From: Candidatus Omnitrophota bacterium
Lineage (GTDB): Bacteria > Omnitrophota > Omnitrophia > Omnitrophales > Aquincolibacteriaceae
Length of the DNA stretch: 64,000 nucleotides
Assembly: GCA_041653795.1 (NCBI GenBank)
Contig: JBAZER010000004.1
Coordinates: 8,493 to 72,492, forward strand
Direction: 5' to 3'
A program made the translations under genes and the position numbers. Positions 17,348 through 37,801 of the stretch are shown here, piece by piece. Below the pieces are notes generated by a model. That model made no database searches and was not told where the DNA came from. It saw nothing but the letters and a program-made list of their open reading frames with translations. Position 1 is the first letter of the stretch. Every line of letters begins with the position of its first letter.

Positions 17348-17824
17348 TTAGAAGACCAACCCCATCACGAGAAGCCCCAGCCCGATCGCGGCAGAGCTCA
17401 ACACCACCACACGGAACGCGAGCGGCTCCGCGAGAAGCGCCGTCAGGAACTCCCGGGACTTCTTGTAAAAGAAGACAAGCGGCACGACCTTGATCAGGCC
17501 GAGGCTGACCACCAGCGTCACCACAAAGTTTTCCATGCTCGCGGCCCTCGCCACGAGTTTTGTTTCTTGATGGTTGGCGAGGACCGCCCCAATTTCAGAT
17601 TCTCTGAAATTGATAAGTATTGGGACGGCCTTCGCCAATTCCATCCAGGTCCATAAAACAAGGGCTAACACCAGCGCCCCAGCGATCAGCAACCAGCGTG
17701 GTCGCTCTTCCGGATAAAGCTTCGCGATGAGCCGCTTCAGACCTTCCACAGAAAAAACGGCCCACACGCCTCCAAGGACCATCCCCGCGCCCAACACGAT
17801 ACTCAAAATTTTAAAGTAATTCAT
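17348..17824 (-). CDS. hypothetical membrane protein containing an in-frame family B repeat
   Basis: 158 aa with about 4 hydrophobic helices. The segment AVPILINFRESEIGAVL is encoded by the repeat at 17587-17626. ATGA overlap with the upstream small ORF. Confidence 0.5.
   Translation of the reverse strand: MNYFKILSIVLGAGMVLGGVWAVFSVEGLKRLIAKLYPEERPRWLLIAGALVLALVLWTWMELAKAVPILINFRESEIGAVLANHQETKLVARAASMENFVVTLVVSLGLIKVVPLVFFYKKSREFLTALLAEPLAFRVVVLSSAAIGLGLLVMGLVF
17587..17626. repeat. family B hairpin unit inside a CDS
   Basis: CCCCAATTTCAGATTCTCTGAAATTGATAAGTATTGGGAC. Confidence 0.7.
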
Positions 17825-18024
17825 CGATCCATCCTCTCATCAGTCTTCGGTTTCCTGTTTGCAGCCTGTTTTTTTCGCCCTTCAATGATCAGCGCTACGC
17901 CGGCCAGAAAAAACGAGAGGAACCCCAGAAATGAAAAGACGATGCTGGGCAGGGTCCCCACCCAGAACGCGCAGAGGATCAGCGTTAACCCGGGGAGAAA
18001 ATATTTCCAAAGATAATTTTTCAT
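17821..18024 (-). CDS. small two-TM membrane protein (copy 1)
   Basis: ORF 17821..18042; MKNYLWKYFLPGLTLILCAFWVGTLPSIVFSFLGFLSFFLAGVALIIEGRKK. A paralog lies at 21258-21440. Confidence 0.5.
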   Translation of the reverse strand: MKNYLWKYFLPGLTLILCAFWVGTLPSIVFSFLGFLSFFLAGVALIIEGRKKQAANRKPKTDERMDR

Positions 18025-18027
18025 AAT

Positions 18028-18100
18028 CTCAATACCTTTCAATTTTTACGAAGCGGTCCCAATTCCAATCAATCGAAGCGGAACAGAGATTGGGGCTGCC
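18028..18100. repeat. tandem family B units
   Basis: CTCAATACCTTTCAATTTTTACGAAGCG + GTCCCAATTCCAATCAATCGAAGCGGAACAGAGATTGGGGC; same two-unit arrangement as 37559-37646. Confidence 0.65.
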
Positions 18101-18170
18101 CTGATTACCATTCCGGAAACATTCTCGCAGAATCGATGAAGAGTGAAAAATAAAAAAGGGTCACACCTAT

Positions 18171-18248
18171 TTATTCCCTTACCCTTACCGCATATTCTTT
18201 CTCGAGTAAATGGTTGTTAAGGTAGACCTGTTTTCCGGATTTGTCGCT
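18171..18248 (-). pseudogene. 3' remnant of a SNase-type nuclease gene (last ~25 codons)
   Basis: Hand translation RSDKSGKQVYLNNHLLEKEYAVRVRE* versus the C-termini VDKTGKQIYLNNLLLEKGYAVRVRD* (19790 gene) and ECYLNNLLLEKGYAVKVRN* (22123 gene). It abuts the Fic stop codon. Confidence 0.55.
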
Positions 18249-19422
18249 ACGTGTTTGCTTCCGGGCCCGTGAACCGGTACCGGGTTGAGCGGCCGGAACC
18301 TTCGGCTGTAAGAAGCCCGAGCTTCATCAAATGAATGAAATCCTTGCGGGCGGTCTCGTCGGAGCAGTGGTTCAACTTGCAATATTTCCGGGTCGTGATC
18401 CATTCCCCGCTTTTCATCATCCACCGTAATGCCTTGATGTGTTTTTTGTCCAATCTTGCCCATGTATTCTGCCCGAGCACTTGTTTGATATCTTTGATCT
18501 TCCCCTCTTTTTCGAGCTGGGATTTGACCCGGACAAGCTGGTCTCTCAAGGCTTCCAGGTAGTAGAGGACAAAATAGGTCGCGTCATAGCCATGTTCTTC
18601 GGCCGCCTGGATGGACTTGTAGTAAGCGACCTTGTGATGCTCGAAATAGTCCGAGGGCGCGAGAAGGTTGATGAAACCATACCCCTGTTTTTCAAGATAG
18701 AGGTTGGAAAGGGCCCTGGCACTCCGTCCGTTCCCATCATCAAAGGGATGGACATGAACGAAGTAAAGATGCACAAGGGCGGCATTCACAAGCGGATGGA
18801 TCCCCGTCTCGCGATTCATCCATTCTATAAAGCGGTCCATCATGCCCGGGACTTCCAGCGCCGGGGGCCCTTCGTAAACAGCCCGGCCGTGTCCGTCCAC
18901 AACATAGATGGGGCCTTTGCGATACTGGCCGACCGTAATAGGACGATCCTTGTGGGTGTTGTAGACCAGGATCTTGTGCAGTCCATGGATTCTCTCATGA
19001 GTAAAAGGATCCGCTTTATGCTTGTGCATGAATTCCAGGGCAAGTTTGTTGTTGTAGATCATCTGCATGCTTTCATCCGCGAAATCTTTTTTCTTCCGGT
19101 CCATGTTGCGAAGCGCCGCTTCCAGAGAGGTGACAGCCCCCTCGATGCGGCTCGAATAATAGGCTTCCTGCTTGAGAGCGCTCCTGGAAAGCGCCGAGAC
19201 AGAAACGGGGGAAAGTTTGAGGGATGAGAGAAATCCCTTATCCTGAGAGATCGCGGAAATAAGGGAAAGGACCTCCGGGACCAGAACCATCCAAAAGGGT
19301 TTTCCATTCTTTGCGGGCAAGCCGACGGCTTGGGCTTTTTTAGCTCTTTCTTTTCCGAAAGCCATCCACGCCTTTTCGCCTAGAGCCCCTATAGCTTGTG
19401 ATCTTGTCAGATAAGCGTTCAT
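18247..19422 (-). CDS. Fic-family protein (class II, intramolecular inhibitory motif) with C-terminal wHTH
   Basis: 391 aa; Fic motif HPFDDGNGRSARAL (HxFx[DE]GNGRxxR); N-terminal SSRIEG matches the [ST]xxxE[GN] inhibitory helix. Confidence 0.85.
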   Translation of the reverse strand: MNAYLTRSQAIGALGEKAWMAFGKERAKKAQAVGLPAKNGKPFWMVLVPEVLSLISAISQDKGFLSSLKLSPVSVSALSRSALKQEAYYSSRIEGAVTSLEAALRNMDRKKKDFADESMQMIYNNKLALEFMHKHKADPFTHERIHGLHKILVYNTHKDRPITVGQYRKGPIYVVDGHGRAVYEGPPALEVPGMMDRFIEWMNRETGIHPLVNAALVHLYFVHVHPFDDGNGRSARALSNLYLEKQGYGFINLLAPSDYFEHHKVAYYKSIQAAEEHGYDATYFVLYYLEALRDQLVRVKSQLEKEGKIKDIKQVLGQNTWARLDKKHIKALRWMMKSGEWITTRKYCKLNHCSDETARKDFIHLMKLGLLTAEGSGRSTRYRFTGPEANT

Positions 19423-19789
19423 TTTGAGATCCCTATAATCGTACTTGCCTTAGAGGGCAAGCACGATAAAGTCGGAGCCCACGGTCAGCTCTGCACTTTA
19501 TCGCAAAGTTAATCGCCAACTATTCGCCAATTATTGTACCCGGCCTTTGGCGATTTGTCCAACCGGTATTATTCCCGTACTCTGACCGCACTTGCTCCCA
19601 GTGAGCAAGTACCATCGCGTACTGGCTATCATTAAAAGATCCATCGAAAGCCAGTACAGCACTGATTTCCAATAATTTTAGATGTGAATCAGGCGTCGCT
19701 CGTTAATGTCAGCCCTGGCTCTTTTTCAAACATTGAAGGTAGCCAGGACAGTCCAAACTACCTTTTAAAAAATGAAAAACAAAGTTTGG
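19423..19789. repeat. 367-bp intergenic stretch made of hairpin modules
   Basis: GTACTTGCCTTAGAGGGCAAGCAC, GCACTTGCTCCCAGTGAGCAAGTAC (cf. CACTTGCGCCAGTGCGCAAGTG at 22079-22100), and AGTACAGCACTGATTTCCAATAATTTTAGATGTGAATCAGGCGTCGC (cf. 16795-16850). Confidence 0.5.
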
Positions 19790-20509
19790 TCAGTCGCGTA
19801 CGCGAACGGCATATCCTTTTTCCAGCAACAGGTTGTTAAGGTAGATCTGTTTTCCGGTTTTATCTACATAAAAGACGTCGCCAAGATAGCGGCCCCATTT
19901 TTCTTTTCTTTGGGTGCGGGCGGATTTCAGAATAATGGACTCGCAATGGGCAAGTTCGCGCTCGACGAAACGCTTGGCAGCCCGGCCTTCTCCGCCCTGA
20001 ATCGTTCTTCGATTCAAGGACGGATCCGCCTTCTTTGTGGCGGAGTCCCCACTAAACTCGGGACAATCAATCCCCTTCAAACGGATGGTTTCATGCTTCT
20101 GGTCGTCAAAACCGGTGTCGATCTCGAAGTCACGCGAGGACCATTCCCCTTTCGCGGCCTTGTCCTCCAATGCGAGGCGCTTCTTCTCATCCGGCACCGT
20201 GATCAGTGCCCGGTAATGTGCCCAAGTCAACTTTGGCCGCGCGGCCAAAGTCGGGAATTTCTCGGCAAATCTCATGCAACGATAGAAGACCGTTTCTCCG
20301 AATCCAAGATCTTTCGCAAGATTGGCGACGATCTTTTTACCGTGTTCCTGATTCGGATTCTCAGACCTTTGGAGGTATTCATTAATAAGCCGGCCGGTCT
20401 CCCAGTAAGTACGGACTTTGGCTTCTTCTATTCTTTGTCGGCCGAGAAGAAGGGTTTCCTCAACCTTCTTGCGGAGCGCGGCATAGGTAGCGACGGAGAC
20501 GGTGTTCAT
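19790..20509 (-). CDS. DUF1016 N-terminal domain fused to a truncated staphylococcal-nuclease (SNase) domain
   Basis: ORF 19790..20671; ATG at 20509 gives an ATGA overlap with the methyltransferase stop. YWETGRLINEYL...LAKDLGFGETVFYRCMRFAEKFP (YhcG-like N-domain); IRLKGIDCPE and GRYLGDVFY..YLNNLLLEKGYAV (SNase motifs). Confidence 0.7.
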   Translation of the reverse strand: MNTVSVATYAALRKKVEETLLLGRQRIEEAKVRTYWETGRLINEYLQRSENPNQEHGKKIVANLAKDLGFGETVFYRCMRFAEKFPTLAARPKLTWAHYRALITVPDEKKRLALEDKAAKGEWSSRDFEIDTGFDDQKHETIRLKGIDCPEFSGDSATKKADPSLNRRTIQGGEGRAAKRFVERELAHCESIILKSARTQRKEKWGRYLGDVFYVDKTGKQIYLNNLLLEKGYAVRVRD

Positions 20510-21081
20510 TTTTCTCTTTTGCAGGTTAGGACAATCCCGTAATGGTACGGTTTTAGATCGTAAAGTTCCGGCGAAACGAATCCAGCGCTCTCGGCCCACC
20601 GGATGCAATCTTCGGGCTTGGGACGGATATCTATGGAAGGCCCTCGCGGTGTCGAAGGATCGTAGTTCCAATGAATAATGCCGAGTTTGCCATCCGGTTT
20701 TAATACCCGTTTCGCTTCTTTAAGCAGGACCAAAGGATCCTCGAGATGAAGGATATTAAAAAGCATGACATAATCGACGCGGGCATCGGGCAAACCCGAT
20801 CCTTCGGCCATGAAGTCCCGCAGCAGAACCCGAACGTTATGGATCCCCTGCTTTTTCGCCTCTTGATCCGTGATCCGGATCATTTCGGGCTCGATATCCA
20901 AAGCGTAGATCTGTCCGCGAATGATCTTGGCAGCGGCCAAGGTGAATGTTCCGTATCCGCACCCGAATTCGACCACATCACGGGTTTGTCCGTTGATCCC
21001 CAGGGTCATGATGACGCGATGCGGATCGAAAAAGTTCTCCCATGTCCCGCGATCCGGCATTCCGCTTTCTCTGGTTTTCAT
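20506..21081 (-). CDS. class I SAM-dependent methyltransferase
   Basis: 191 aa; VVEFGCGYGTFTL motif I; LKPDGKLGIIHW post-motif region. Looks like a small-molecule type, with no DNA-MTase motifs. Confidence 0.8.
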   Translation of the reverse strand: MKTRESGMPDRGTWENFFDPHRVIMTLGINGQTRDVVEFGCGYGTFTLAAAKIIRGQIYALDIEPEMIRITDQEAKKQGIHNVRVLLRDFMAEGSGLPDARVDYVMLFNILHLEDPLVLLKEAKRVLKPDGKLGIIHWNYDPSTPRGPSIDIRPKPEDCIRWAESAGFVSPELYDLKPYHYGIVLTCKREK

Positions 21082-21170
21082 AGGCCCTGACTTTTATTAC
21101 ATTTCACTAATAAGGAAGTCAAGGTTGTCCTTGTCTTAGATTTGATTCCCCTAAGGGTTGGCAAGGGCTG

Positions 21171-21210
21171 CCCCAATTTCAGATTCCCTGAAATTGATAA
21201 GAATTGGGAC
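21171..21210. repeat. family B hairpin unit (part of a degenerate duplicate of 17570-17630)
   Basis: GGTTGGCAAGGGCTGCCCCAATTTCAGATTCCCTGAAATTGATAAGAATTGGGAC, about 91% identical to 17575-17626 including flanks. Confidence 0.7.
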
Positions 21211-21257
21211 TGTCACGATTTCCGCTTCCCTGTAATCCATGATAATCATGATGCCCC

Positions 21258-21440
21258 TCATCCTTTTCCTCTATCCGGAAAGCATCGTTTCCTCCCCTCA
21301 ATAATAAGCGCTACGCCGGCCAAAAAGAACGAGAGAAACCCCAGGAATGAGAAAACCATGCTGGGCAAGGTCCCCACCCAGAACGCACAACCGATGAGCG
21401 CCAACCCGGGGAGAAAATATTTCCAAAGATAATTTTTCAT
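21258..21440 (-). CDS. small two-TM membrane protein (copy 2, divergent C-terminus; possibly a pseudogene)
   Basis: MKNYLWKYFLPGLALIGCAFWVGTLPSMVFSFLGFLSFFLAGVALIIEGRKRCFPDRGKG; DNA is about 87% identical to 17881-18024 (hand alignment, 18 mismatches in 144). Confidence 0.4.
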   Translation of the reverse strand: MKNYLWKYFLPGLALIGCAFWVGTLPSMVFSFLGFLSFFLAGVALIIEGRKRCFPDRGKG

Positions 21441-21604
21441 AACCAAGGTTATTCTCGCAGAATCAATCGGCAACCGCAAGTAAGAGCGCTCCGGCGGGAA
21501 GTGTGTTTCGCCAACGTTCGCCATGATTCTCCATAGTCAAAAAATAAACGGGTAATCATGACTGTCCAAGTCGCCATTAATGAAAAGAAAATAAAGACTT
21601 GGGC

Positions 21605-21645
21605 GCCATGCCCCACCGAGGCATGGCTGAACTCGCGAGCGTCGG
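21605..21645 (+). repeat. family H hairpin (variable stem, conserved CCAsCGA loop, CTCGCG tail)
   Basis: GCCATGCC-CCACCGA-GGCATGGC-TGAACTCGCGAGCGTCGG. Confidence 0.5.
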
Positions 21646-21749
21646 CCTCGATGAGAAACCCTGGCTCTCGGCCTCCTTAGCGTGGCTTAACACACTTCCC
21701 GCCGTCACTTTATATTAGAAAAGGCGAAGGGTTGAGACGAGGCACGCTA

Positions 21750-21832
21750 GTCCCAATACCTATCAATTTTCACGAAGTGGAAATTGGGGCAATCCTTGTC
21801 ACCATTATGGAAAAGAATGAAAGACAAGGATA
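21750..21832 (+). repeat. family B composite repeat
   Basis: GTCCCAATACCTATCAATTTTCACGAAGTGGAAATTGGGGC + AATCCTTGTCACCATTATGGAAAAGAATGAAAGACAAGGAT. Confidence 0.75.
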
Positions 21833-22122
21833 GAACGACGAGCGGGCAGGGACTTCTCGAAGAGAAGGAGCGAGGAGTGGAGGGCGAACGAGGGAATCCA
21901 CGCCGGGGATTCCCGAGTGGTGACGAGGCTCAAGCCCGAAGCCTTCGCGTGGATAAAAGCTCGATATTGAAGTGGGACGGCAGGGTCGAAACATTTGGTC
22001 AGTTTCGTACGTTGTCGTACACGGAGATCCTTTGAAAGTGACGACAACGCACTGACACAAGGGTGTCAGTGTCCGGACACACTTGCGCCAGTGCGCAAGT
22101 GCGTAAAAGTCGGAATGATCTG

Positions 22123-23319
22123 TCAATTCCGTACTTTTACGGCATATCCTTTTTCTAAAAGCAGGTTATTAAGGTAGCACTCGTGCCCTGTGGCACCAGT
22201 ACCTCCGGTCGAAGCTCCGAAGCTTCGTACCGGAAGGATCTCTTGGCCGTCTATGTCCGCCACACTGCTCGGCGGATTACTTCGGCTCGCTTTCTGTGGG
22301 ACCGGGTAAAACACGTCGGCTTCGTAACGGTCGTAGGTGGCGTTCTTACTGCTCAGGACGGTGAGGGACGGGACGCCTTTCAGGACCTTTTCCACGAACT
22401 GTTTCGCCTTTTTTCCCTCCCCGGTATCGATCTCGGGGCAATCGATCCCCCGGAGCCTCAGCTTCTGGCGGCTGGCCCCTCGCATACCGGTATCCAGCAT
22501 GACCCAGAGCGTGTCCCCGTCGACCACGCTCTCGAGATAGGCCCGGTAAGTGAAAAGGTCTTGGGCCGTGCGGCCGTCCTTCACAAGTTTCGTACCGGTC
22601 CATGCGACGATGTCCCCGGCCTTCAGCCCGCGGGCTTCCGCGGACGTCAGGGCGCGGTAGCCCTTGAACCCGTGGTCCAGAAGCAGAATGTTCTTGTCAG
22701 GCCAGGGGGTTTCGTTGGGGTCCTTGATCCGGCAAGTGTTTAAAAGCCCCAGCTTCGGGACTTTGAGCAGTTCGGTGGGATTTTTCTCCTGCGAAGACGG
22801 GGACATCAAGTCCCCGCGAGCGTGCCGAAAAGACAGCTTTTCGGCTACCTGCGCACGCACGGATTCATGGCGAACCAGGGCGCGAAGATCATTCCGGGTC
22901 AGACCTTCCCGGAGGGCGCGGCGTTCCAGGGCCTTGCGTTTTTGAACATCCTGGACCGTCAGAAGTTCGATGTGATGGGCCCAGGGCAATTCGCGCGCGG
23001 GCGCGCGTTTCCGGTTTTCCAGATAAAACTGGCGCATCCGCCGGAGGCTCGCAACGGAAAATCCCGATCCCAGGTTTTCGGTAAGTTCTGCGGAAAATTT
23101 GTGGATGCGGCCGGCGCCGTAAGCGGCGCGGGGTTCGCCGTCCTGTTCGATCTCCACGACGTATTGACCGGTCTTCCAGTAGGCCGTGGCGAGAGAGTGG
23201 CGGGCGGTATTGAAAAGCCGGATGACGTCGGCAACGATCTCTTTGTACCGGCTGGGCGTCAATTTGTTCGTCACGGCGAACCTCCCGTTCCTTCGCGGAT
23301 CCTTACAGGTGCGGGACAA
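22123..23319 (-). CDS. DUF1016 N-terminal domain fused to a full staphylococcal-nuclease (SNase) domain
   Basis: 398 aa; YWKTGQYVVEIEQ...FSVASLRRMRQFYLE (YhcG-like N-domain); VVDGDTLWV, LRLRGIDCPE, YDRYEADVFY, YLNNLLLEKGYAV (SNase OB-fold motifs). Confidence 0.7.
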   Translation of the reverse strand: MSRTCKDPRRNGRFAVTNKLTPSRYKEIVADVIRLFNTARHSLATAYWKTGQYVVEIEQDGEPRAAYGAGRIHKFSAELTENLGSGFSVASLRRMRQFYLENRKRAPARELPWAHHIELLTVQDVQKRKALERRALREGLTRNDLRALVRHESVRAQVAEKLSFRHARGDLMSPSSQEKNPTELLKVPKLGLLNTCRIKDPNETPWPDKNILLLDHGFKGYRALTSAEARGLKAGDIVAWTGTKLVKDGRTAQDLFTYRAYLESVVDGDTLWVMLDTGMRGASRQKLRLRGIDCPEIDTGEGKKAKQFVEKVLKGVPSLTVLSSKNATYDRYEADVFYPVPQKASRSNPPSSVADIDGQEILPVRSFGASTGGTGATGHECYLNNLLLEKGYAVKVRN

Positions 23320-23354
23320 AAATCAACCTCTCTCTGAGGACAATGTCCGGGTTA

Positions 23355-23756
23355 CTATTTTCTTTCTTCCGCCCGTTTAAGGACCTTCCGGACAAAAACG
23401 AGATATTCCCCGGATTCTTTTTCACTGATCAGCTCCCCCGCGCCGTAAAGGTCCTGATTGCGTTTCATTCTCATAGAATTTCCGAAAACCAGAATATCCG
23501 AATCCGCCAGGATCTCGCTCATCCGCTCGAGGATCTTCACGTGGTGCCCCGGGAGGCTGCGTACCTTCCGGCCTTCCTGCGCGCACAGAGCCATGCCGGT
23601 TTTGATCAGGGCTTGAAAGGCGTAGGTAAAACGAACCTCCGGAAAGGGATCTTTTTCCGCGATCTCAAGATCACGATGCGCGTTCCGGAAACGCTGGCGG
23701 ATCTCTTCTGCGGCGAACTTGAAAGGTTGGAAAAATTCCCTCTCCGCGGCCGTCAT
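23355..23756 (-). CDS. HEPN-domain protein (putative toxin partner of the upstream nucleotidyltransferase)
   Basis: 133 aa all-helical; RMKRNQDLY resembles the HEPN R-x4-6-H motif with Tyr in place of His; ATGA overlap with the MNT gene. Confidence 0.55.
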   Translation of the reverse strand: MTAAEREFFQPFKFAAEEIRQRFRNAHRDLEIAEKDPFPEVRFTYAFQALIKTGMALCAQEGRKVRSLPGHHVKILERMSEILADSDILVFGNSMRMKRNQDLYGAGELISEKESGEYLVFVRKVLKRAEERK

Positions 23757-24295
23757 ACCAACCGGACCTTTTTCTTTTTCGCGAGGGACTTGAAGAAGGG
23801 GTCTTTCTTGAGCTTTTCGTGATATTCCCGCGGGTCCGCGCTGATCACATTGATCTCGCGATCCGTCTCTTTTTGGAACGTCGCGACCGCTTTCTGAAGC
23901 GCGAGAGTGTCATGCCCGCCGATGACAAGAAGGTCGATATCGCTCGCGGCATCCATTTTTCCGCTGGCATAAGAACCGAAGATAAAGGCCTGCTCGATCC
24001 CGGGGATGCCCGAAAGCGCGTCCCGGAGCTTTTGCTCAAGACCGATCGTTTTGAGAACGATCCCCTTGTATTCTTTAAGGAGCGGGTAATCCCGGTTCAG
24101 GGAGTAATAAGAGGCGCCCCCGCGCTCGCAACATTTCAGGACCCCTTCCCGCTCAAGCTCTTTGAGCTTGCGGGAAAGGTTCCCGTCATCCAGCGAAAAT
24201 TTACGGGCCATTTCGCTGACGTAAAGCTCGGCATCCTCATGCAGGAACATATAACCCAGGATGGCTTTTGTGTGTTTGGAACGCATGCTGATCAT
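23753..24295 (-). CDS. wHTH + minimal nucleotidyltransferase (MNT) domain protein
   Basis: 180 aa; FIFGSYASGKMDAASDIDLLVIG (GSxxxG...DxD of the Pol-beta NTase fold); N-terminal wHTH ELYVSEMARKFSLDDGNLSRKLKELEREG. Confidence 0.75.
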   Translation of the reverse strand: MISMRSKHTKAILGYMFLHEDAELYVSEMARKFSLDDGNLSRKLKELEREGVLKCCERGGASYYSLNRDYPLLKEYKGIVLKTIGLEQKLRDALSGIPGIEQAFIFGSYASGKMDAASDIDLLVIGGHDTLALQKAVATFQKETDREINVISADPREYHEKLKKDPFFKSLAKKKKVRLV

Positions 24296-24307
24296 CGGAG
24301 CATCCTT

Positions 24308-24347
24308 CCCTGTAGTTAATTACAGGGAATACTGTAACTTAGTACAG
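24308..24347. promoter_or_regulatory. candidate operator: tandem inverted repeats upstream of the wHTH-MNT gene
   Basis: CCCTGTA-gttaat-TACAGGG (24308-24327) followed by ACTGTA-acttag-TACAGG (24331-24348), 13 nt upstream of the ATG at 24295. Confidence 0.35.
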
Positions 24348-24401
24348 GGGGCTTGTCAAGCCCGGCTCACAGAGCGAAGGCGGGGTACTGTTCTACAAAT
24401 C

Positions 24402-24671
24402 TCATAGGGCGGCAAGGCGCTTCTTCGCGGCGTCCCCGCTTGCGTAGACCGCGCCCTTTTCGCAGACCATTTTTTCGATTTTCCCCCACTCCTTGGGAGT
24501 ATAGGGAGACTGCACAGTCACTTGACACGGCAGGATCATAATCCCGTCCTTCGTCACGCCGAACGCGACGGCGGACCCCTTCTGCAAACCGAGGATCTTA
24601 CGAACGCTGTTGGGTATGGTCACCTGTCCTTTGGATGTCATCTTCGTCGTTTCAATGATCGTCATCGGCAC
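24402..24671 (-). CDS. AbrB/MazE/SpoVT-family DNA-binding protein (antitoxin-like)
   Basis: 89 aa; SKGQVTIPNSVRKILGLQKGSAVAF swapped-hairpin motif. Confidence 0.7.
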   Translation of the reverse strand: MPMTIIETTKMTSKGQVTIPNSVRKILGLQKGSAVAFGVTKDGIMILPCQVTVQSPYTPKEWGKIEKMVCEKGAVYASGDAAKKRLAAL

Positions 24672-24850: not shown

Positions 24851-26449
24851 CTATGCATCAAAAGGCTTTAAACTAACTCTGGCCTTGATAGCATCACATT
24901 CTCGCATATAACAATCTTCAAAAATTTCTGATATCTTTTTCTCGTATTTCTCCTTGTCGTCTTTTGGCACTTGGTATAAAACAGCATCGTGCATGGGCAG
25001 TAAAAAATCCGCATCTCCCAGAGAAGAATCTACTGCCAGGATTGCCCTTTTCAAAATTAGAGATGCTGTACCCTGGATGCGTTGGCTTATAACCCATTTC
25101 TCCTCATTTGCCGAGAGCGTTTCCTTCGTCGAAGGCCGATAACGATAGTTGCCATTGCGCGTACCAATCCTGCCTTCTCTGAGAAGAGCATCACACAGCT
25201 TTTTTTTCCACTCGTTAATTTGTTTAAACTGATCAAAAAAATTATCAACAGCCGCTTGAACGGCAGCCTGATTTTGCCCTGTTGATTCAAATATCATCTT
25301 AACGAGATTTTCTTTTTTCATGCCAAATGAAAAAGAAAGAAATATTTTTTTTGCTATATCCCGATTGGCTTTTTCTCCCAGAATAGCCTTCCCTAAAGCT
25401 GTATACACATCTCCAGAATTATATAAATTGATTAACGCTTTATCTTTTGCATCGTCGGCAAGAATTCCGGGTTCGAATTGGCTAAAATCTGGATATATTA
25501 ATATTTTCTCTCTGTCTGAAGCTATGATGTCACGATTTTCTCGTTTTAGTTGCTGCAAGTGAGGATCGGTGACTGTGGCTCTTCCGGTTACTGTTCCTAG
25601 TGAATCGTAATATGGAAAAACCCTGTTTGACCCTATCGCTCCAAATCTCAAAAGAATGCCTTTATCCCTCTCGGCTTTTTTGACTCGTTGAAAATGGAAC
25701 AAAAGATCAATTTTCGCCTCATAGAGACTAGCTAAGTCATCAAAAATATCCGTAAAAACACATTTGGCAAGGTAATCGTAACCGTTATCTTTCAGAGATT
25801 TAGCCAACGTCTTTTTGTCAGAAACATCGATGATGCCCCATTGGTCTCTCAGCTGTTCATTGGATAAACGGGTCTGCTCATCAAGAATATCCAACCGCCT
25901 CAACAATCGCTTTGTGTTAATTCTAATTCCTCGATATTGGCTTCTAAGCATGATGCGCTGGACTGGGTTTTCTATGCTGTAAAATCTATCCTTCTCACCT
26001 TTTATCTCAAGCTGGTCGTTCATATGTTGCCATACGTTAATCAAAGATGAGGATAGCTGCCCCAATAATCTGCTTATCTCTAGTACGCCGATATTCGTTT
26101 CACCTTTAAGGCAAATCCGTTTCAACAGATCAAAATCTTTCTCGATCTTGAAGTATGGCTTGATCAATTGCCAAATACTCCATGGAGCCTCTCTCTTTTT
26201 GTCTTCATACGGTTGGCCAACGACGAGCCGAGCCGCCAGACAAACATCTATAATTTTTATCGGAAAATCTGTTTTTATATTTTTAAAATATGGAATAAGC
26301 CGATTTAATTCATATGAAATTATTTCGGTTTTAATTCTACTGAGGTCTTTCGCATCCACAATCTGCGGAGGATGGCCCTGCTTTCCTAGAAAAAGAATGG
26401 GAGGAACTTCTATGTTGAATGGGTCTAAAACATAACTTAAGAAGAACAT
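24851..26449 (-). CDS. family A (Pol I-like) DNA polymerase domain protein, no nuclease domains recognised
   Basis: 532 aa. TVTGRATVTDPHLQQL (cf. TxTGRLSSxxPNLQN). ILIYPDFSQFEPGILA (motif A, cf. DYSQIELR). RDIAKKIFLSFSFGM (motif B, cf. RRxAKxxNFGxxYG). QGTASLILK (cf. QGTAADIIK). LLPMHDAVLYQVPKDD (motif C, cf. QVHDELVFEVHKDD, Glu to Ala). The ATG lies 2 nt after the RT stop. Confidence 0.8.
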   Translation of the reverse strand: MFFLSYVLDPFNIEVPPILFLGKQGHPPQIVDAKDLSRIKTEIISYELNRLIPYFKNIKTDFPIKIIDVCLAARLVVGQPYEDKKREAPWSIWQLIKPYFKIEKDFDLLKRICLKGETNIGVLEISRLLGQLSSSLINVWQHMNDQLEIKGEKDRFYSIENPVQRIMLRSQYRGIRINTKRLLRRLDILDEQTRLSNEQLRDQWGIIDVSDKKTLAKSLKDNGYDYLAKCVFTDIFDDLASLYEAKIDLLFHFQRVKKAERDKGILLRFGAIGSNRVFPYYDSLGTVTGRATVTDPHLQQLKRENRDIIASDREKILIYPDFSQFEPGILADDAKDKALINLYNSGDVYTALGKAILGEKANRDIAKKIFLSFSFGMKKENLVKMIFESTGQNQAAVQAAVDNFFDQFKQINEWKKKLCDALLREGRIGTRNGNYRYRPSTKETLSANEEKWVISQRIQGTASLILKRAILAVDSSLGDADFLLPMHDAVLYQVPKDDKEKYEKKISEIFEDCYMRECDAIKARVSLKPFDA

Positions 26450-26451
26450 GA

Positions 26452-28095
26452 TTAATTGTCGTATTCTGGAAGATCTCGATACAATTCAGTAATATTAATT
26501 GGCTCTAATGGAATAAAGTAATTCCCCCTCAAAGAAGCATCTTGCAATGCCCTGTAAGTGCCCCTTATGTCCGCTCTTACAAATGGTTGAACTTTATCTC
26601 TAATGTGTGGCGCATAGGGGAGCTCGTGTATAGCAATCATGCCGTTTCTTTGGGTGATATAATGTTTTAATTTTTTAAATCGCTTTGCCAAATAAACTCT
26701 ATCCTCCGCACTACCACAAGCACCCAGATACAACAATGCTCCAGACAATAAGGGCACGGATTTCGTTCCCTTAACAATCTGCTTCGCGAGGTTTATTAAT
26801 TTAGTATTGGAATATTTGTGCGCCACGAACAACTGCCACAAGAGATAACTTTGCCAGCTATAAATGTTCTTTTCTCGGTCAAGCATAATCTTCACTAACT
26901 CTTTTAAATTTTTTGGGGTTAGATCCACAGACTTCAAATATCTTATAAAACTGTCACTAGAACATGGCTGTTCAGACAACTGACGGATTACAGATCGCGT
27001 GATTTTTTTAAAATCAAATCCTCGCTTTGCTTCTTTGCAAAGCGCAATCTTTTCGAGTCTGTGTATGCAAAATCTAAATTCTCTTGCTTGCGTTTTCTTC
27101 GCCCTAATTAATTCTAATGCATATGCTTTCAACAAAGGAAAACTCTGTTGCACGGTGCTCCGCCTATGCGACTTAAATAGTTGATCTATTTGTTCAACTT
27201 TTCTATTTGGTTTCCTTATATAGTTTTCGATTTCCTTTGTGTTTTGGTGAAGGATGAGAGTCTTTTGCGCATTTACATTCAAGCCTATTTTTCTAAGTTC
27301 AATTATTACTTCCTTAAGAATTTTTCGGGCGCTATATTTCGAATCGCACACTATGCGCATATCGTCTGCATACCGAACATACTTATAGCCTTTGCTTACC
27401 ATAGCCTTATCAACTCTGTGCATTAAAACATTTGCTAAAAAAGAAGATGCATCCCTGTTTTGAGGAATTCCATGCTTTTTGTATGGCGTCCAAGCTCTTA
27501 GTAGTCGGGAAATGATTTCGACTGTTTTCTGAATTCGTCGAACCTGCGTTTTTCCTAAGCAAAGGTTAGGCAATTCATCAATTAATGCTTTTTGAATATC
27601 GCTGATTCTAATATTCTCATAAAAATTTTGGATGTCGGAAACCAATAAAACATCCGTCTTTTTTCGAAGTTTTGTTTTCGCAGCATCCTCAAATTTAGTC
27701 CACTGACTAGGCGCGTTCAGAAACATATATTTATTTTTTGGCTTTTTTGTCCACCTGTGGCTAAAAACCGATGGTGAAAGCAATTTATCATAAAAGCGTA
27801 TCAGATAGTTCGCCGCCCCATGGTACAAGAGCCTGTCATGAATTGTCGTTTCCAAAGAGTATCGTAAGGTGAAACCCTTTTTGGGAATATTGTATTGCTC
27901 TGACTTTGCAGGGAAATACTTCAATTGCGGCTTCTTGTTATGTTTCATAAAATGGCCAAGAATTTTATCGGCCCGCAATGCATCTCCATAAATAAGCGTG
28001 TCCGGAAACCAATCATCTTTTAAATCGCACTTCATTTGCTTGACCAATACATCTATATTGAACGGAATGCCTTCTATTGTTATTGAGCGGTTCAT
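26452..28095 (-). CDS. reverse transcriptase (non-LTR prokaryotic type, Abi/UG-like) with a helical C-terminal domain
   Basis: 547 aa. IPKKGFTLRYSLETTIHDRLLY (RT1/2), LVSDIQNFYENI (RT3/A), GIPQNRDASSFLANVLM (RT4/B), YVRYADDMRIVC (RT5/C, YADD), LNVNAQKT (RT6/7). About 250 aa of helical repeats follow the palm. Confidence 0.85.
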   Translation of the reverse strand: MNRSITIEGIPFNIDVLVKQMKCDLKDDWFPDTLIYGDALRADKILGHFMKHNKKPQLKYFPAKSEQYNIPKKGFTLRYSLETTIHDRLLYHGAANYLIRFYDKLLSPSVFSHRWTKKPKNKYMFLNAPSQWTKFEDAAKTKLRKKTDVLLVSDIQNFYENIRISDIQKALIDELPNLCLGKTQVRRIQKTVEIISRLLRAWTPYKKHGIPQNRDASSFLANVLMHRVDKAMVSKGYKYVRYADDMRIVCDSKYSARKILKEVIIELRKIGLNVNAQKTLILHQNTKEIENYIRKPNRKVEQIDQLFKSHRRSTVQQSFPLLKAYALELIRAKKTQAREFRFCIHRLEKIALCKEAKRGFDFKKITRSVIRQLSEQPCSSDSFIRYLKSVDLTPKNLKELVKIMLDREKNIYSWQSYLLWQLFVAHKYSNTKLINLAKQIVKGTKSVPLLSGALLYLGACGSAEDRVYLAKRFKKLKHYITQRNGMIAIHELPYAPHIRDKVQPFVRADIRGTYRALQDASLRGNYFIPLEPINITELYRDLPEYDN

Positions 28096-28195
28096 GGTTA
28101 TCTATGGTTTCCTAAATTAACCTATTAGCTTAATTCGAAAAAACTCCAGAGATTTATTGCTTGATTCTATTCCCTCACCAGTAGAACCGGCATAT

Positions 28196-28345
28196 TTACC
28201 ACGGTATTTTGATCCCCGCCTCAATCGCGGTCTCCTTCATGGATTCACGGAAGCGGACAAAGGTCTTGGCGTTCCCTTCAAAGAGGTCCTTGGTGAGGAC
28301 GACTTCCACGCCCAACGGGTCCCCTTCCTTGCTCGTCAGGTTCAT
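28196..28345 (-). CDS. 49-aa hypothetical ORF between the promoter-like module and the RT gene
   Basis: Below the ORF-track cutoff. Hand translation MNLTSKEGDPLGVEVVLTKDLFEGNAKTFVRFRESMKETAIEAGIKIPW*. No Shine-Dalgarno seen. Confidence 0.25.
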   Translation of the reverse strand: MNLTSKEGDPLGVEVVLTKDLFEGNAKTFVRFRESMKETAIEAGIKIPW

Positions 28346-28382: not shown

Positions 28383-28420
28383 ATTCTCGCAGAATCGATC
28401 GCCCACCGCAAGCAGGACGG
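28383..28420 (-). promoter_or_regulatory. conserved promoter-like module TTGCGG-N17-GAGAAT with the ATTCTcgcAGAAT palindrome (copy 3)
   Basis: Minus strand: TTGCGG (28411-28406), 17 nt, GAGAAT (28388-28383). The same module is at 21451-21486; the palindrome alone is at 18121-18137. Confidence 0.35.
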
Positions 28421-28488
28421 AAATCTTGAGGGGATCCCACTTTAGGTTGTTATCTTGAAAGCAATTCCAATGCGTTTCGTCACCGCTC

Positions 28489-28526
28489 AGATCGCCCCAG
28501 CGAGGCGATCTTCGCTCGCGCGTTCG
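28489..28526 (+). repeat. family H hairpin
   Basis: AGATCGCC-CCAGCGA-GGCGATCT-TCGCTCGCGCGTTCG. Confidence 0.5.
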
Positions 28527-28535
28527 ACTGCACTC

Positions 28536-28686
28536 GGCGGACAGGAGTCGTCACGAGACAGCTCTCGGAGCTGATGGGAGCTTGGTTCCGTTCACTCGAG
28601 AACGGATCCCATCAGCGAGAGCGCAAGCTGGCACTCGTCGCAGGAGCGAGTGAACAGCCGGTGTCGAGAGACGATTCCTGTCCGCC
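28536..28686. other. 151-nt highly structured element (17-bp closing helix + two internal hairpins); ncRNA or MITE candidate
   Basis: GGCGGACAGGAGTCGTC (28536-28552) pairs with GACGATTCCTGTCCGCC (28670-28686), 16 Watson-Crick pairs plus 1 G-T. Internal hairpins at 28561-28622 and 28627-28658. Confidence 0.35.
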
Positions 28687-28878
28687 ACCCTGCCCGTTTT
28701 GTCTCACGAGCGTGCCTCCTCGCACTGGGATTGCTTCCCAAATACAGTCATGCACCTGTTCCGTTCAGCTTTCTTGATTTTAGTTGCGTTCCCGAGTACC
28801 ATCCTAGTCTTAGATTTTGTTTTATAGGTGGCGACAACACTGATTTTAATTAAGATTGGGACGAGGAGCGGGGAGAAA

Positions 28879-32956: not shown

Positions 32957-32969
32957 GGAAATCAGGACA

Positions 32970-33095
32970 GTCCCAATACTTATCAATTTCAGCTAAACTG
33001 AAATTGGGGCAGTCCTTGTCGCCTTTTAAGAAGGGAAATAAAAGACAAGGACAGTCCAAGTCACCATTAATTGAAAACAAAATAAAGACTTGGGC
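32970..33095 (+). repeat. family B composite repeat plus two further hairpin modules
   Basis: GTCCCAATACTTATCAATTTCAGCTAAACTGAAATTGGGGC + GTCCTTGTC..GACAAGGAC + GTCCAAGTCACCATTAATTGAAAACAAAATAAAGACTTGGGC (the latter also at 21550-21605). Confidence 0.7.
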
Positions 33096-35778: not shown

Positions 35779-35861
35779 ATCCTGACTTTTATTTTCTTTT
35801 TAGAAATGGTAGTCAGGATTGCCCCAATTTCCGCTTCGCTTCAATTGATAGGGATTGGGAC
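35779..35861 (-). repeat. family B composite repeat (CCTGAC hairpin + core unit)
   Basis: ATCCTGACTTTTATTTTCTTTTTAGAAATGGTAGTCAGGAT + TGCCCCAATTTCCGCTTCGCTTCAATTGATAGGGATTGGGAC; close relative of 45632-45714. Confidence 0.7.
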
Positions 35862-37299: not shown

Positions 37300-37557
37300 T
37301 TACAGAAAGCCGGCGAGCGGAATGGCTTCGTCAATCAGCATGATGGGGATGTCCCCCCGGATCGCGTAGAGGTACCGCTTATCCGCACGAACGAGCCCGC
37401 CGTCGATCTTCTGATCGACCGCTTTTCCGTTTCGGGTTTTAAGCTCATGCTTTTCGATCTTATGATTGATCTTTTCGATCAAAGACGCGTCCGCAACCGT
37501 CAGGCCTTGTTTCGTCTCGGGACAACACAGAATGGAGAGTAATTCGCCGGATATCAT
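37300..37557 (-). CDS. Trm112/YcaR-family small zinc-ribbon-like protein
   Basis: ORF 37300..37575. LLSILCCPETKQGL ... IRGDIPIMLIDEAIPL. The upstream extension KGIGT is encoded by a family B repeat, so ATG 37557 is preferred. Confidence 0.7.
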   Translation of the reverse strand: MISGELLSILCCPETKQGLTVADASLIEKINHKIEKHELKTRNGKAVDQKIDGGLVRADKRYLYAIRGDIPIMLIDEAIPLAGFL

Positions 37558-37558
37558 A

Positions 37559-37646
37559 GTCCCAATACCTTTCAATTTTTACGAAGCGGTCCCAATACCA
37601 ATCAATCACAGCTTTGCTGTGATTGGGGCTGTCCCAACTACCATTT
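37559..37646 (+). repeat. tandem family B units
   Basis: GTCCCAATACCTTTCAATTTTTACGAAGCG + GTCCCAATACCAATCAATCACAGCTTTGCTGTGATTGGGGCTGTCCCAACTACCATT. Confidence 0.7.
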
Positions 37647-37801
37647 ATGTAAAGAAATTTAAAGTTGGGATAGCAGTATTATACAGAAAAATTACTTTTG
37701 GGGAATGGTAAACATGAAGCGGGTAACGGTTTGGCTTTGATGTTCAGCATTGTTCGTTGCCCGCCTGGTGCTTTGCCAGGCTCCGCGGGGGTATCCGGGT
37801 T

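Follow-up and report, generated by a model that had tools for sequence, protein, structure and literature searches.

A reverse transcriptase and a DNA polymerase encoded side by side

The window analyzed here is a 64,000-nucleotide stretch of contig JBAZER010000004.1 from a Candidatus Omnitrophota bacterium. Its minus strand carries a reverse transcriptase (RT) gene assigned to the UG9-small group of Class 1 UG/Abi RTs (positions 26452 to 28095; 547 amino acids, ATG start). It is preceded by an AT-rich leader of 95 nt (28096 to 28190, minus strand), which contains a Shine-Dalgarno-like AGGAAA and forms the upstream edge of a low-GC insert. A second gene, encoding an RT-associated family A DNA polymerase (PolA; 24851 to 26449, minus strand; 532 amino acids), begins just 2 nt beyond the RT stop codon. 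The original prediction stopped at the RT and overlooked PolA, the defining partner of UG9.

The RT open reading frame matched Pfam RVT_1 at residues 97 to 285 (E = 1.7e-15), and all of the palm motifs that the original prediction had quoted as intact were found. They lie in a fingers and palm core of approximately residues 57 to 297 (27205 to 27927, minus strand), which contains motif A (SDIQNFYENI, including D154), GIPQNRDASSF with its QNRDASSF stretch, and YADD (Y242 to D245; 27361 to 27372), where the family has YMDD. Residues D154, Q212, N213, Y242, D244, and D245 were invariant in the RT alignment and in 73 sequences. Five positions after D154, the window RT has Y159; this residue is F or Y in 73 of 73 sequences and occupies what we take to be the steric-gate position known in other RTs. 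The search returned 366 RT homologues at E ≤ 1e-10, about 547 amino acids long, the nearest being 53% identical. The window RT keeps 58 of 61 near-invariant positions, and its three deviations are all conservative.

The C-terminal half had been described as a run of helical repeats. The strings quoted for it are present, and in the AlphaFold2 model (pLDDT 91.6, pTM 0.89) residues 298 to 517 form a stack of helices (H298 to H517) with high pLDDT. This predicted alpha-helical repeat (alphaRep-like) domain spans residues 298 to 547 (26455 to 27204, minus strand), is unlike the maturase X and endonuclease layout of group II intron RTs, and includes the conserved positions Y412, Q415, Q482, and R483. 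In Foldseek searches, the RT model gave full-length matches to DRT6, UG15/DRT4, AbiK, AbiA, and Abi-P2, and the alignments to DRT6, UG15/DRT4, and AbiK ran over 500 to 566 columns, taking in the alphaRep-like domain. Intron, retron, and DGR RTs matched the model at the core only.

These full-length structural matches support the earlier proposal of a likeness to Class 1 UG/Abi RTs such as AbiK and AbiA, as do the UG/Abi profiles, which also name the group. The PADLOC profile RT_UG9_small aligned end to end with the RT (residues 5 to 546 against profile positions 3 to 541 of 541; E = 3.1e-171, 568.9 bits). The runners-up were UG9_large (334 bits) and UG21 (193 bits), with other Class 1 groups also following the best match. 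As in the small variant, no trypsin-like protease is fused to the N terminus of the RT, and an upstream gene for an MBL-fold hydrolase is absent. Judged by these sequence comparisons, the RT is a member of UG9, small variant, in Class 1 of the UG/Abi RTs.

The other RT classes dismissed in the original prediction fared no better here. The group II intron model TIGR04416 scored 78.8 bits (cut-off, 300), its match being confined to the RT core, and Rfam detected no intron RNA at E ≤ 1. The retron model St85 scored 49.6 bits (cut-off, 235); no Rfam retron ncRNA and no conserved upstream region were found. There was no long direct repeat resembling a TR/VR pair, and the DGR RT matched only the core, with a TM of 0.35. 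No CRISPR array was present between 14 and 40 kb, and no Cas family was the best match for any open reading frame between 22.1 and 29.8 kb. Weak Csa3/CasR-type HTH matches occurred only on the MNT-like protein, and a PADLOC Cas1_IIIb match (56 bits) covered the RT core alone. The two findings listed in advance as counting against the prediction, placement in another RT clade and intron RNA domains flanking the gene, were both looked for and neither was found.

PolA matched Pfam DNA_pol_A (E = 2.9e-32) and PADLOC RTasPolA (E = 1.9e-130, 434 bits), the UG9 partner family listed as cluster 58 by Mestre et al. Its AlphaFold2 model (pLDDT 92.2) matched Klenow, the Bst large fragment, and Pol theta in Foldseek with TM values of 0.79 to 0.84, Pol theta being as close as Klenow. 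The window PolA is full length, keeps 30 of 31 near-invariant positions, and has F375 where the family has Tyr; its nearest relative is 45% identical. It scored 104 bits against the NCBIfam PolI model (cut-off, 720), below what that model demands of a housekeeping DNA polymerase I. Housekeeping PolA has a 5' nuclease, motifs Exo I to III, and HDE, whereas the 532-amino-acid window PolA has none of the three.

The N-terminal part of PolA, residues 1 to 144 (26018 to 26449, minus strand), is an exonuclease-like domain predicted to be catalytically dead. It is poorly conserved, lacks a DxE or YxxxD motif, and has D68 as its only invariant residue. It did not align to Klenow by sequence and gave no Pfam match at E ≤ 1, yet the structural superposition on large-fragment polymerases, being full length, includes it. 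The polymerase domain, residues 145 to 532 (24854 to 26017, minus strand), was aligned to Klenow residue by residue. Among 58 members, the invariant residues were D321 (Klenow D705), E326 (E710), R290 (R668), R363 (R754), K367 (K758), Q459 (Q849), H487, and D488 (D882). At the position of Klenow E883, the same members have Ala (54), Gly (3), or a gap (1), giving a family-specific motif C of HDA, not HDE; the position of Klenow F762 is L in most of the family. Sequence and model together predict a polymerase with intact catalytic residues that is active but non-proofreading. Since the glutamate of motif C is missing throughout the family, PolA catalysis could be altered or reduced.

Boundaries and surroundings of the cassette

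RT and PolA make up a low-GC insert of 3.3 kb. The low-GC block reported earlier is real: the GC content is 0.38 for RT and 0.39 for PolA, against an overall value of 0.51 in the window. GC3 is 0.38 to 0.39 in the cassette versus 0.64 to 0.71 in neighboring genes. On a fine scale, GC content rises from 0.34 to 0.54 across the interval 28100 to 28200, and at 24850 it changes from 0.32 to values of 0.46 to 0.59. On the basis of the GC3 contrast, the locus is most likely a two-gene cassette that was acquired horizontally. A search for insertion scars found no tRNA between 15 and 36 kb, no flanking direct repeats, and no empty site, and the conserved unit itself has no integrase, endonuclease, or terminal repeats. 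The direct repeats that were detected are dispersed host elements, and none of 35 nt or longer involves the cassette. Repeats of about 80 nt were considered as integron cassettes and rejected, since copies also flank ordinary housekeeping genes and do so in both orientations.

In the interval that separates RT from a divergent permease gene at 28828, the RT strand has no open reading frame of at least 50 amino acids; the interval holds only a 49-amino-acid remnant and a repeat element. Pfam gave nothing at E ≤ 1 for the 49-amino-acid frame, which is just upstream of RT; as this frame is also located beyond the low-GC cassette, it was treated as a remnant.

The neighbors in the window are candidate defense and toxin-antitoxin genes and include the MNT/HEPN-like PDC-M05 (PDC-M05A/B), DUF1016-SNase/PDC-S02, MazE, and Fic, the PDC entries being candidate families. 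At other UG9 loci, the neighborhood contains type III R-M and AlbA_2 (L083), type ISP R-M and HNH (L109), an integrase island with BglII, PDDEXK, and DUF3800 (L110), or an integrase and Phage_GPA (L108). In this small sample, which has no statistical control, UG9 cassettes sit in neighborhoods of the defense or mobile-element type. A published value puts the defense-island enrichment of UG9 at 0.15 or above (PMC9226505).

A covariance-model scan for an associated ncRNA, as proposed in the original prediction, gave no Rfam match at E ≤ 1 between 21 and 31 kb and none at the gathering score in the whole window. Between loci with 64 to 83% DNA identity, homology sets in somewhere from 77 nt upstream of the RT start to about 60 nt within the gene and runs at most 19 nt beyond the PolA stop. 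The gap upstream of RT varies among UG9 loci from 11 to 760 nt. All-against-all blastn of the 500-nt upstream and 400-nt downstream flanks (60 and 47 loci, respectively) revealed no conserved flank, the only matches being coding extensions or near-identical genomes, and a survey of upstream fold stability across loci revealed no shared element. Adjacent conserved structured ncRNA serving as template, a trait of Class 2 UG/Abi RTs such as those of DRT2, DRT9, and DRT10, was not found at UG9 loci. Because homology ends at the open reading frame boundaries, the gaps vary, and Rfam is empty, these sequence comparisons argue against a conserved neighboring ncRNA; an unlinked RNA could still be used.

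A structured 280-nt element upstream of the window RT (z of about -5.5) was considered as the ncRNA of the system and rejected. It has host-like GC content and is absent from every other UG9 locus, and its two true metagenome relatives sit in unrelated contexts with neither RT nor PolA.

The RT-PolA pair across UG9 loci and related systems

UG9 with PolA has been cataloged since 2008, as group D (Kojima & Kanehisa 2008) and as UG9 (Simon & Zimmerly 2008). Mestre et al. 2022 assigned UG9 to Class 1; of its 79 members, 60 are of the small form paired with PolA (PMC9226505). Predictions of UG9 as a defense system date from 2020 to 2022 and include one in that same study (PMC9226505). Our literature search returned no functional study of UG9 and no report of phage protection, of a DNA product, or of a structure.

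Scanning a genome collection with the single RT sequence gave zero matches. The nearest relatives share only about 50% identity with it, and an alignment-based scan was required to recover relatives. Their distribution across phyla is sporadic. Frameshifts, interruptions, or truncations affect several loci elsewhere (L036, L046, L059, L064, L067, and L068), and a protein identical to the window copy is present in three further assemblies. A scan of viral contigs yielded no true UG9, only distant RTs at 24 to 28% identity.

Of the 63 UG9 loci that could be assessed, which come from many phyla, every one has PolA immediately downstream of RT and in the same orientation, and PolA is retained in both the small and the large variants. 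In most intact loci, the two open reading frames overlap or abut (-14 to +12 nt, most commonly -8), and pairwise RT and PolA identities correlate across 44 loci (r = 0.89), indicating codivergence. The RT-PolA pairing is obligate, and PolA is translationally coupled to RT. This tight coupling, taken with the codivergence, suggests that RT and PolA form a physical complex acting on one substrate.

The window locus shares with other UG9-small systems an RT of about 547 amino acids, an alphaRep-like domain, a PolA of about 530 amino acids immediately downstream on the same strand, the lack of both a fused protease and an MBL gene, and a neighborhood of the defense or mobile-element type. It differs from them at the sequence level only (RT, 53%, and PolA, 45%, to the nearest). 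UG9-large shares the RT clade and the PolA partner with the window (334 bits to RT_UG9_large) but has an N-terminal protease of about 270 amino acids and an upstream MBL gene, and homology among large-variant loci reaches about 1.8 kb further upstream. Since the window RT has neither addition, the protease-activated nuclease effector logic (bioRxiv 2025.07.28.667249) does not apply to it.

Among characterized systems, the closest functional analogy is DRT7 (UG10), which also joins a Class 1 RT to a second DNA-synthesizing enzyme. In DRT7, poly-dT made by the RT in a protein-primed reaction is copied by a primase-polymerase into duplex-like DNA (bioRxiv 2026.02.16.706125, 2026.04.18.719102). 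Its AEP primase-polymerase is fused to the RT and accompanied by a large accessory element, whereas the window has a separate family A polymerase, and the window RT matches RT_UG10 weakly (67 bits). DRT3 (UG3, UG8, and an ncRNA) likewise has two polymerases in one operon that make complementary strands; the product is double-stranded DNA, and DRT3b/UG8 is a Class 1 protein-primed enzyme (bioRxiv 2026.05.04.722794). DRT3 has as its partner enzyme a second RT, for which a conserved ncRNA serves as template, whereas UG9 has a family A polymerase and no conserved ncRNA.

The closest solved whole-chain structures to the window RT are DRT4 (UG15) and DRT6 (UG12), with TM values of 0.58 to 0.60 at 12 to 14% identity. 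Both are single-gene systems, in which RT and alphaRep form one chain, and neither has a polymerase partner. DRT4 makes random single-stranded DNA (ssDNA), protein primed on Tyr125 (PMC12783706); the window RT scored 57 bits against NCBIfam Drt4 (cut-off, 450). AbiK, AbiA, and Abi-P2 share the Class 1 architecture and match the window RT structurally over its full length (TM, 0.40 to 0.47), but they stand alone (AbiA with a HEPN domain) and lack PolA, and the AbiP2 profile scored 53 bits. The Class 1 RTs studied so far (AbiK, AbiA, Abi-P2, DRT4, DRT7, and DRT3b) are tyrosine primed and use no nucleic acid template.

Possible roles of the two enzymes

The locus is an intact, divergent member of the known UG9 family and not a new kind of element. 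We are close to certain that it encodes a UG9-small system in which a Class 1 RT is paired with a dedicated family A polymerase, and this two-gene cassette is most likely an antiphage defense module. The account that combines these assignments with DNA synthesis by both enzymes is, taken whole, on balance the probable one.

In that account, the RT would start DNA on one of its own tyrosines and make ssDNA with no nucleic acid template, as other Class 1 enzymes do. PolA would then copy this strand into duplex or fold-back DNA, as is suggested by its retention of the residues that grip the primer-template duplex in Klenow, and would thereby take the part played by the primase-polymerase domain in DRT7 and by the second RT in DRT3. 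Accumulation of the product DNA upon infection would lead to cell arrest or to titration of phage DNA-binding proteins. The steps of protein-primed, untemplated synthesis by the RT and second-strand synthesis by PolA, drawn from analogy, have a nearly even chance of being right. A fuller version, put forward a shade more tentatively, is that of a two-enzyme DNA-writing machine, in which the untemplated protein-primed strand of the RT is copied by PolA from a fold-back primer and the resulting duplex serves as an immune signal or toxin. The sequence of the RT strand may possibly be dictated by protein, as in DRT3b and DRT7.

A priming tyrosine was sought by conservation among 73 sequences, and no hydroxyl residue outside the catalytic motifs was strictly invariant. 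Outside YxDD, the best-conserved tyrosines were Y239 (71 of 73), Y91 (70 of 73), Y412 (69 of 73), and Y123 (61 of 73), and by these alignments Y123, Y412, and Y91 are candidate priming residues. With no tyrosine strictly invariant outside YxDD, protein priming in UG9 is proposed by analogy. As to the PolA step, there is no evident source of a primer for PolA on protein-linked ssDNA, and to our knowledge family A polymerases, by the precedent of the family, cannot prime de novo.

The RT could instead copy an RNA encoded elsewhere, such as its own mRNA or a host or phage transcript, with PolA making the second strand. Double-stranded cDNA is classically made by such a split of tasks between an RT and a DNA-dependent DNA polymerase. 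In sequence profiles, the RT core is similar to the cores of RTs from group II introns and of Cas6-RT-Cas1 RTs, and among systems that contain a Class 1 enzyme, some rely on an ncRNA by way of a partner (DRT3). Sequence conservation is low among UG2 ncRNAs, so that nonconservation alone is weak evidence. We nevertheless consider RNA templating unlikely: UG9 belongs to Class 1, in which all studied RTs are independent of a nucleic acid template, and the homology that stops at the open reading frame boundaries and the empty Rfam search speak against it. Upstream gaps as short as 11 to 36 nt and the overlap of RT with PolA leave no slot for a conserved ncRNA, and the sole structured element near the window RT is found elsewhere without UG9.

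Another possibility concerns PolA, which might not be a second-strand synthase but an effector on phage or host DNA, for instance by obstructing replication intermediates or through aberrant synthesis without proofreading, or a sensor of phage DNA ends, the ssDNA of the RT being a regulator or the sole product. The dead exonuclease-like domain, the HDA motif, and the change of F762 to L suggest a specialized enzyme that may be of low fidelity; no other effector is obvious in UG9-small, and the fold is as near to Pol theta as to Klenow. This role is nonetheless improbable, because the coupling and codivergence suggest an RT-PolA complex on one substrate and the precedents of DRT7 and DRT3 favor strand complementation. 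UG9-large, moreover, adds a protease/MBL nuclease effector and yet keeps PolA, which suggests a place for PolA in the core synthesis machinery rather than an effector role. That the cassette is a selfish or nondefense retroelement, or a decaying functionless relic, would fit its sporadic distribution, its composition of recent transfer, the broken loci elsewhere, and the lack of a reported phenotype, but is very improbable given two full-length window genes with their near-invariant positions kept, the identical protein in three further assemblies, a unit with no mobility genes or terminal repeats and no true copy on viral contigs, and the published defense-island enrichment.

Comparison of the loci indicates a functional unit of exactly two genes for UG9-small, free of any conserved flanking ncRNA. 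In DRT3 and DRT7, a Class 1 RT and a second polymerase give unusual duplex DNA, and UG9 naturally follows as the next case to consider; no other such pairing uses a family A polymerase. For bench work, it offers a PolA clade with intact catalytic residues, no proofreading motifs, and a fixed HDA motif C. If synthesis by RT followed by PolA is what UG9 performs, it would represent a third way, evolved independently, of arriving at double-stranded DNA among defense RTs and the first with a family A polymerase.

The reverse transcriptase and its polymerase partner

The reverse transcriptase (RT) gene at 26452-28095 on the minus strand encodes a protein of 547 amino acids with an ATG start, and the motifs named in the original prediction (SDIQNFYENI, GIPQNRDASSF, and YADD) were all found in its open reading frame (ORF). 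RVT_1 was placed on residues 97-285 by Pfam (E=1.7e-15). The best PADLOC profile was RT_UG9_small (568.9 bits, E=3.1e-171), followed by UG9_large (334 bits), UG21 (193 bits), and UG32 (169 bits). Since the RT_UG9_small match ran end to end (residues 5-546 against profile positions 3-541 of 541) and was the best of the PADLOC profiles, the UG group of the RT has a clear answer, UG9-small. UG9 is group D of Kojima and Kanehisa, in which a neighboring DNA polymerase A gene was noted in 2008 (PMC2602772), and it has been assigned to the Class 1 UG/Abi RTs, the class with a C-terminal helical-repeat (alphaRep) domain (Mestre et al. 2022, PMC9226505). The predicted Class 1-like character therefore agrees with both the UG9_small profile and the published placement, and the comparison drawn with AbiK and AbiA was apt.

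An AlphaFold2 model of the RT, with an input alignment of 25 sequences, was confident (pLDDT 91.6, pTM 0.89) and consists of the RT core followed by an all-helical domain that spans residues 298 to about 517, as had been proposed from the helical repeats. In Foldseek comparisons with the PDB, the model matched the DRT6 hexamer and UG15/DRT4 over full length (500-566 aligned columns, TM 0.58-0.60) and AbiK, AbiA, and Abi-P2 over full length as well (TM 0.40-0.47), whereas group II intron, retron, and DGR RTs gave core-only matches (roughly 285-340 columns, TM about 0.34). No solved UG9 structure was found. The catalytic residues D154, Y242, D244, and D245 were invariant across 73 RT sequences, as were Q212, S217, R241, N275, and K278; N213 was present in 72 of them. 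The window RT differs from the family at 3 of 61 near-invariant positions, each time conservatively, and one of these departures, M243A, yields the YADD form, which is frequent in active RTs. An acidic motif near the RT N terminus (D24-x2-D27-D28-W29-x2-D32 plus D38; residues 24-38, 27982-28026 on the minus strand) was kept in 68-73 of the 73 UG9 RTs, on par with the catalytic residues, and might serve in metal binding, DNA mimicry, or contact with the partner polymerase.

The priming tyrosine of Class 1 RTs varies by group, lying in the fingers loop of AbiK, at Tyr125 of DRT4 (PMC12783706), in the first alphaRep helix of DRT7, and at Tyr666 of DRT3b (bioRxiv 2026.05.04.722794). No tyrosine outside YxDD was strictly invariant in the 73 UG9 RTs. 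The best candidates for the UG9 priming site are Y91 (70/73), Y412 in the IYxWQ motif of alphaRep (69/73), and Y123 (61/73), which lies in a loop of lower model confidence and is numbered close to DRT4 Tyr125.

The original prediction was right as an observation and essentially right as an interpretation, but it described one half of a two-gene system. The ORF that it missed, at 24851-26449 on the minus strand, lies 2 nt past the RT stop and encodes a 532-amino-acid family A DNA polymerase (PolA) that matched DNA_pol_A in Pfam (E=2.9e-32) and RTasPolA in PADLOC (E=1.9e-130). PolA residues 145-515 could be aligned by sequence to the Klenow polymerase domain. The equivalents of the metal-binding D705 and D882, the steric gate E710, the minor-groove readers of the primer-template duplex R668 and Q849, the dNTP-binding R754 and K758, and H881 of Klenow were invariant in 58 RT-associated PolA sequences. 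E883, the glutamate after the catalytic aspartate, is present in nearly all family A polymerases; at this position, the 58 sequences contain Ala (54), Gly (3), or a gap (1). An HDA motif C, which replaces the near-universal HDE (residues 487-489, 24983-24991 on the minus strand), is therefore a fixed trait of the RT-associated PolA clade. The F762 equivalent is Leu in 49 of the 58, and, as read from the alignment, the HDA motif and the F762-to-Leu change are a signature of this clade.

Pfam matched nothing to the first 144 residues of PolA even at E<=1, and conserved DxE or YxxxD motifs are absent there. The PolA model was nevertheless confident (pLDDT 92.2) and could be superposed end to end on Klenow, the large fragment of Bst polymerase, and the polymerase domain of Pol theta (TM 0.79-0.84). 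PolA is therefore of the large-fragment type, and its exonuclease domain is vestigial. A 5' nuclease domain is absent, and the score against the housekeeping Pol I model was 104 bits, with a cut-off of 720. PolA is probably active, template dependent, and non-proofreading.

Conservation of the pair and its flanks

A protein search returned 366 RT homologues at E<=1e-10 from many phyla, nearly all about 547 aa long and the nearest at 53% identity. An exhaustive profile search gave 538 matches at E<=1e-30 among 1.84 billion cluster representatives, indicating that the UG9 RT family is real but rare. An alignment-based genome scan yielded 79 loci, of which L001-L068 are UG9-like. In 63 of these, a PolA homologue lies directly downstream on the same strand; in the remaining 5, the sequence stops about 350 nt or less from the RT, and pairing is therefore 63 of 63 where assessable. 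PolA was also kept in 6 loci with RTs of ~820 aa, the large variant. The RT and PolA ORFs mostly overlap or abut (-14 to +12 nt, most commonly -8), which suggests translational coupling. Pairwise identities of the two proteins were correlated across 44 loci with both genes intact (r=0.89), demonstrating that RT and PolA are inherited and diverge as one unit.

Some UG9 loci elsewhere are decaying. PolA is split by a ~4.2-kb insertion in L064 (6887-7420 and 11612-12157), frameshifts or truncations affect PolA of L046 and the RTs of L036 and L059, and truncated fragments occur at L067 and L068.

In UG2 and UG28, the template RNA is encoded in a constant upstream region, whereas UG9 loci have no such region. 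The ORF-free gap upstream of the RT varied from 11 to 760 nt among loci, and only 36 nt separate the preceding gene from the RT in a Syntrophales relative. Shared flank sequence was found neither upstream (60 loci) nor downstream (47 loci), except for coding N-terminal extensions and near-identical genomes. Between UG9-small loci at 64-83% DNA identity, similarity starts from 77 nt upstream of the RT start to ~60 nt inside it and is lost at most 19 nt beyond the PolA stop. Rfam gave no match at E<=1 in 21-31 kb and none at the gathering score across the window. By these several independent tests, no RNA component is encoded adjacent to the UG9 genes.

The GC-rich gap upstream of the RT contains a strongly structured element at ~28,459-28,738 (~280 nt). 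It has a three-way junction as well as a long stem, with core arms at 28536-28560 and 28662-28686, and its fold z-score is -5.6 for one strand and -5.1 for the opposite one. It had no Rfam match. The element was rejected as part of the UG9 system, as it has host-like composition and a counterpart in no other UG9 locus. A metagenome scan with the basal stem identified two true relatives (86-88% identity), one upstream of a tryptophanyl-tRNA synthetase gene (L099) and one between deaminase and EAL-domain genes (L091); both lack the RT, PolA, and the window's neighbor genes, which likewise argues against a role in UG9. The three copies have 94 predicted pairs in common, and double substitutions maintain 7 of these. 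In the host lineage, the element therefore looks like a true dispersed structured repeat or a small RNA that is so far unclassified. Three other, independent assemblies with an identical RT and the same downstream gene order (ERZ27247363, SRR18595300, and SRR8542065) all stop just short of this repeat, at 204-316 nt upstream of the RT start, and the repeat is probably the cause of these breaks. Comparably stable folds upstream of other UG9 RTs were found only in L016 and L044 and are unrelated structures: a tandem array with a ~21-nt unit (GTGCAGTCTGCAATTGACCGA) at L016 3650-3889 and a near-perfect ~100-nt palindrome at L044 5314-5553.

A low-GC cassette in a candidate-defense island

The low-GC block described in the original prediction was recovered, with GC of 0.38 for the RT and 0.39 for PolA versus 0.51 for the window. 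GC3 was 0.38-0.39 in these genes versus 0.64-0.71 in their neighbors, and GC changes sharply near 24,850 and 28,190. The island genes downstream of the cassette (18247-24671), all on the minus strand, are host-like in GC. They encode an apparently orphan MazE/AbrB-type antitoxin (24402-24671), an HTH-nucleotidyltransferase (23753-24295) and its partner (23355-23756; PADLOC PDC-M05A/B), DUF1016-family paralogues with similar 3' ends (22123-23319 and 19790-20671, the latter with an SNase domain; PADLOC PDC-S02), a methyltransferase (20506-21081), and a Fic protein (about 18247-19422). Given these host-like neighbors, RT-PolA appears to have been inserted recently into a toxin-antitoxin/candidate-defense island that was already there. 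A 49-aa ORF of host-like GC just outside the cassette (28196-28345, minus strand; MNLTSKEGDPLGVEVVLTKDLFEGNAKTFVRFRESMKETAIEAGIKIPW) had no Pfam match at E<=1 and may be what is left of the C-terminal end of a gene that the incoming cassette interrupted.

Repeats are also present in the region. Imperfectly palindromic intergenic repeats of ~55-90 nt, with a core like CCCAATTTCAG...CTGAAATTGAT..ATTGGGAC, occur at 837-921, 17565-17633, 18021-18112, 21127-21212, 21749-21830, 32968-33052, 35807-35861, 37554-37669, and 45639-45715. They lie in both orientations, flank island and housekeeping genes alike, and are REP/MITE-like; copies are present in L091, where one is inserted within the structured element, and L099. 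A 155-nt direct repeat (17872-18026 and 21288-21442, 87% identity) overlaps small island ORFs, and a 35-nt segment of the same module recurs at 18121-18155, 21451-21485, and 28383-28417, the last 290 nt upstream of the RT. The island may have been shaped by recombination or by recurring module boundaries, as these copies suggest.

In relatives, RT-PolA neighbors a type III restriction-modification system and an AlbA_2 protein, or a type ISP restriction enzyme and an HNH protein, or lies within an integrase/excisionase island with BglII, PD-(D/E)XK, and DUF3800 genes. In Nitrosospira sp. NpAV (L108, JXQM01000014.1, 9001-15376), it adjoins genes for a tyrosine integrase and an Arm-type DNA-binding protein, and a homologue of P2-type replication protein A is encoded there too. 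These neighbors point to an integrative element, satellite-like or P2-like, as the carrier of the pair. A viral contig scan found no true UG9. In the published survey, UG9 is strongly enriched in defense islands and a defense role is predicted; 60 of its 79 members are the small variant with PolA, and in the large variant the RT begins with a protease and an MBL hydrolase is encoded upstream (PMC9226505). No functional characterization was found in the searched literature on UG9 with reverse transcriptase, and UG9 is absent from a 2026 overview of DRT1-9.

Proposed activity of the two polymerases

The family assignment, the obligate two-gene unit, the intact active sites, the lack of proofreading motifs, and the lack of an adjacent noncoding RNA are established here. 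Every Class 1 RT studied so far makes protein-primed DNA with no nucleic acid template. RNA-templated cDNA synthesis by the UG9 RT, for which the template would be an unlinked RNA, is accordingly a minority reading that we consider unlikely. In two systems that combine a Class 1 RT with a second polymerase, the second enzyme makes the complementary strand: the poly-dT of the DRT7 RT is copied by a primase-polymerase (bioRxiv 2026.02.16.706125, 2026.04.18.719102), and the poly(GT) and poly(AC) products of two DRT3 RTs pair into double-stranded DNA (bioRxiv 2026.05.04.722794). These are precedents for a second-strand role of PolA in UG9. By analogy, the UG9 RT would synthesize a tethered single strand, protein primed and without a nucleic acid template, PolA would turn it into duplex or fold-back DNA, and this DNA would build up on infection as a toxic or decoy species. 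We give this sequence of steps, taken whole, a little under an even chance. Templated copying by PolA is proposed because its duplex-reading residues are invariant.

The substrate of PolA might instead be DNA of the phage or the host and not what the RT makes, but this is improbable, since UG9-large, which adds a protease-activated nuclease (bioRxiv 2025.07.28.667249), still keeps PolA. The same retention argues for PolA as part of the core machinery for synthesis, with the effector function lying elsewhere. That RT-PolA is a selfish or decayed element is very doubtful.

Two polymerases making a tethered strand and its complement remain the reading that we favor, tentatively, for UG9. The locus is a new, divergent UG9-small and PolA member of a system already catalogued. 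The Nitrosospira host is a cultured isolate and a possible experimental source, and the UG9 family as a whole merits bench work.
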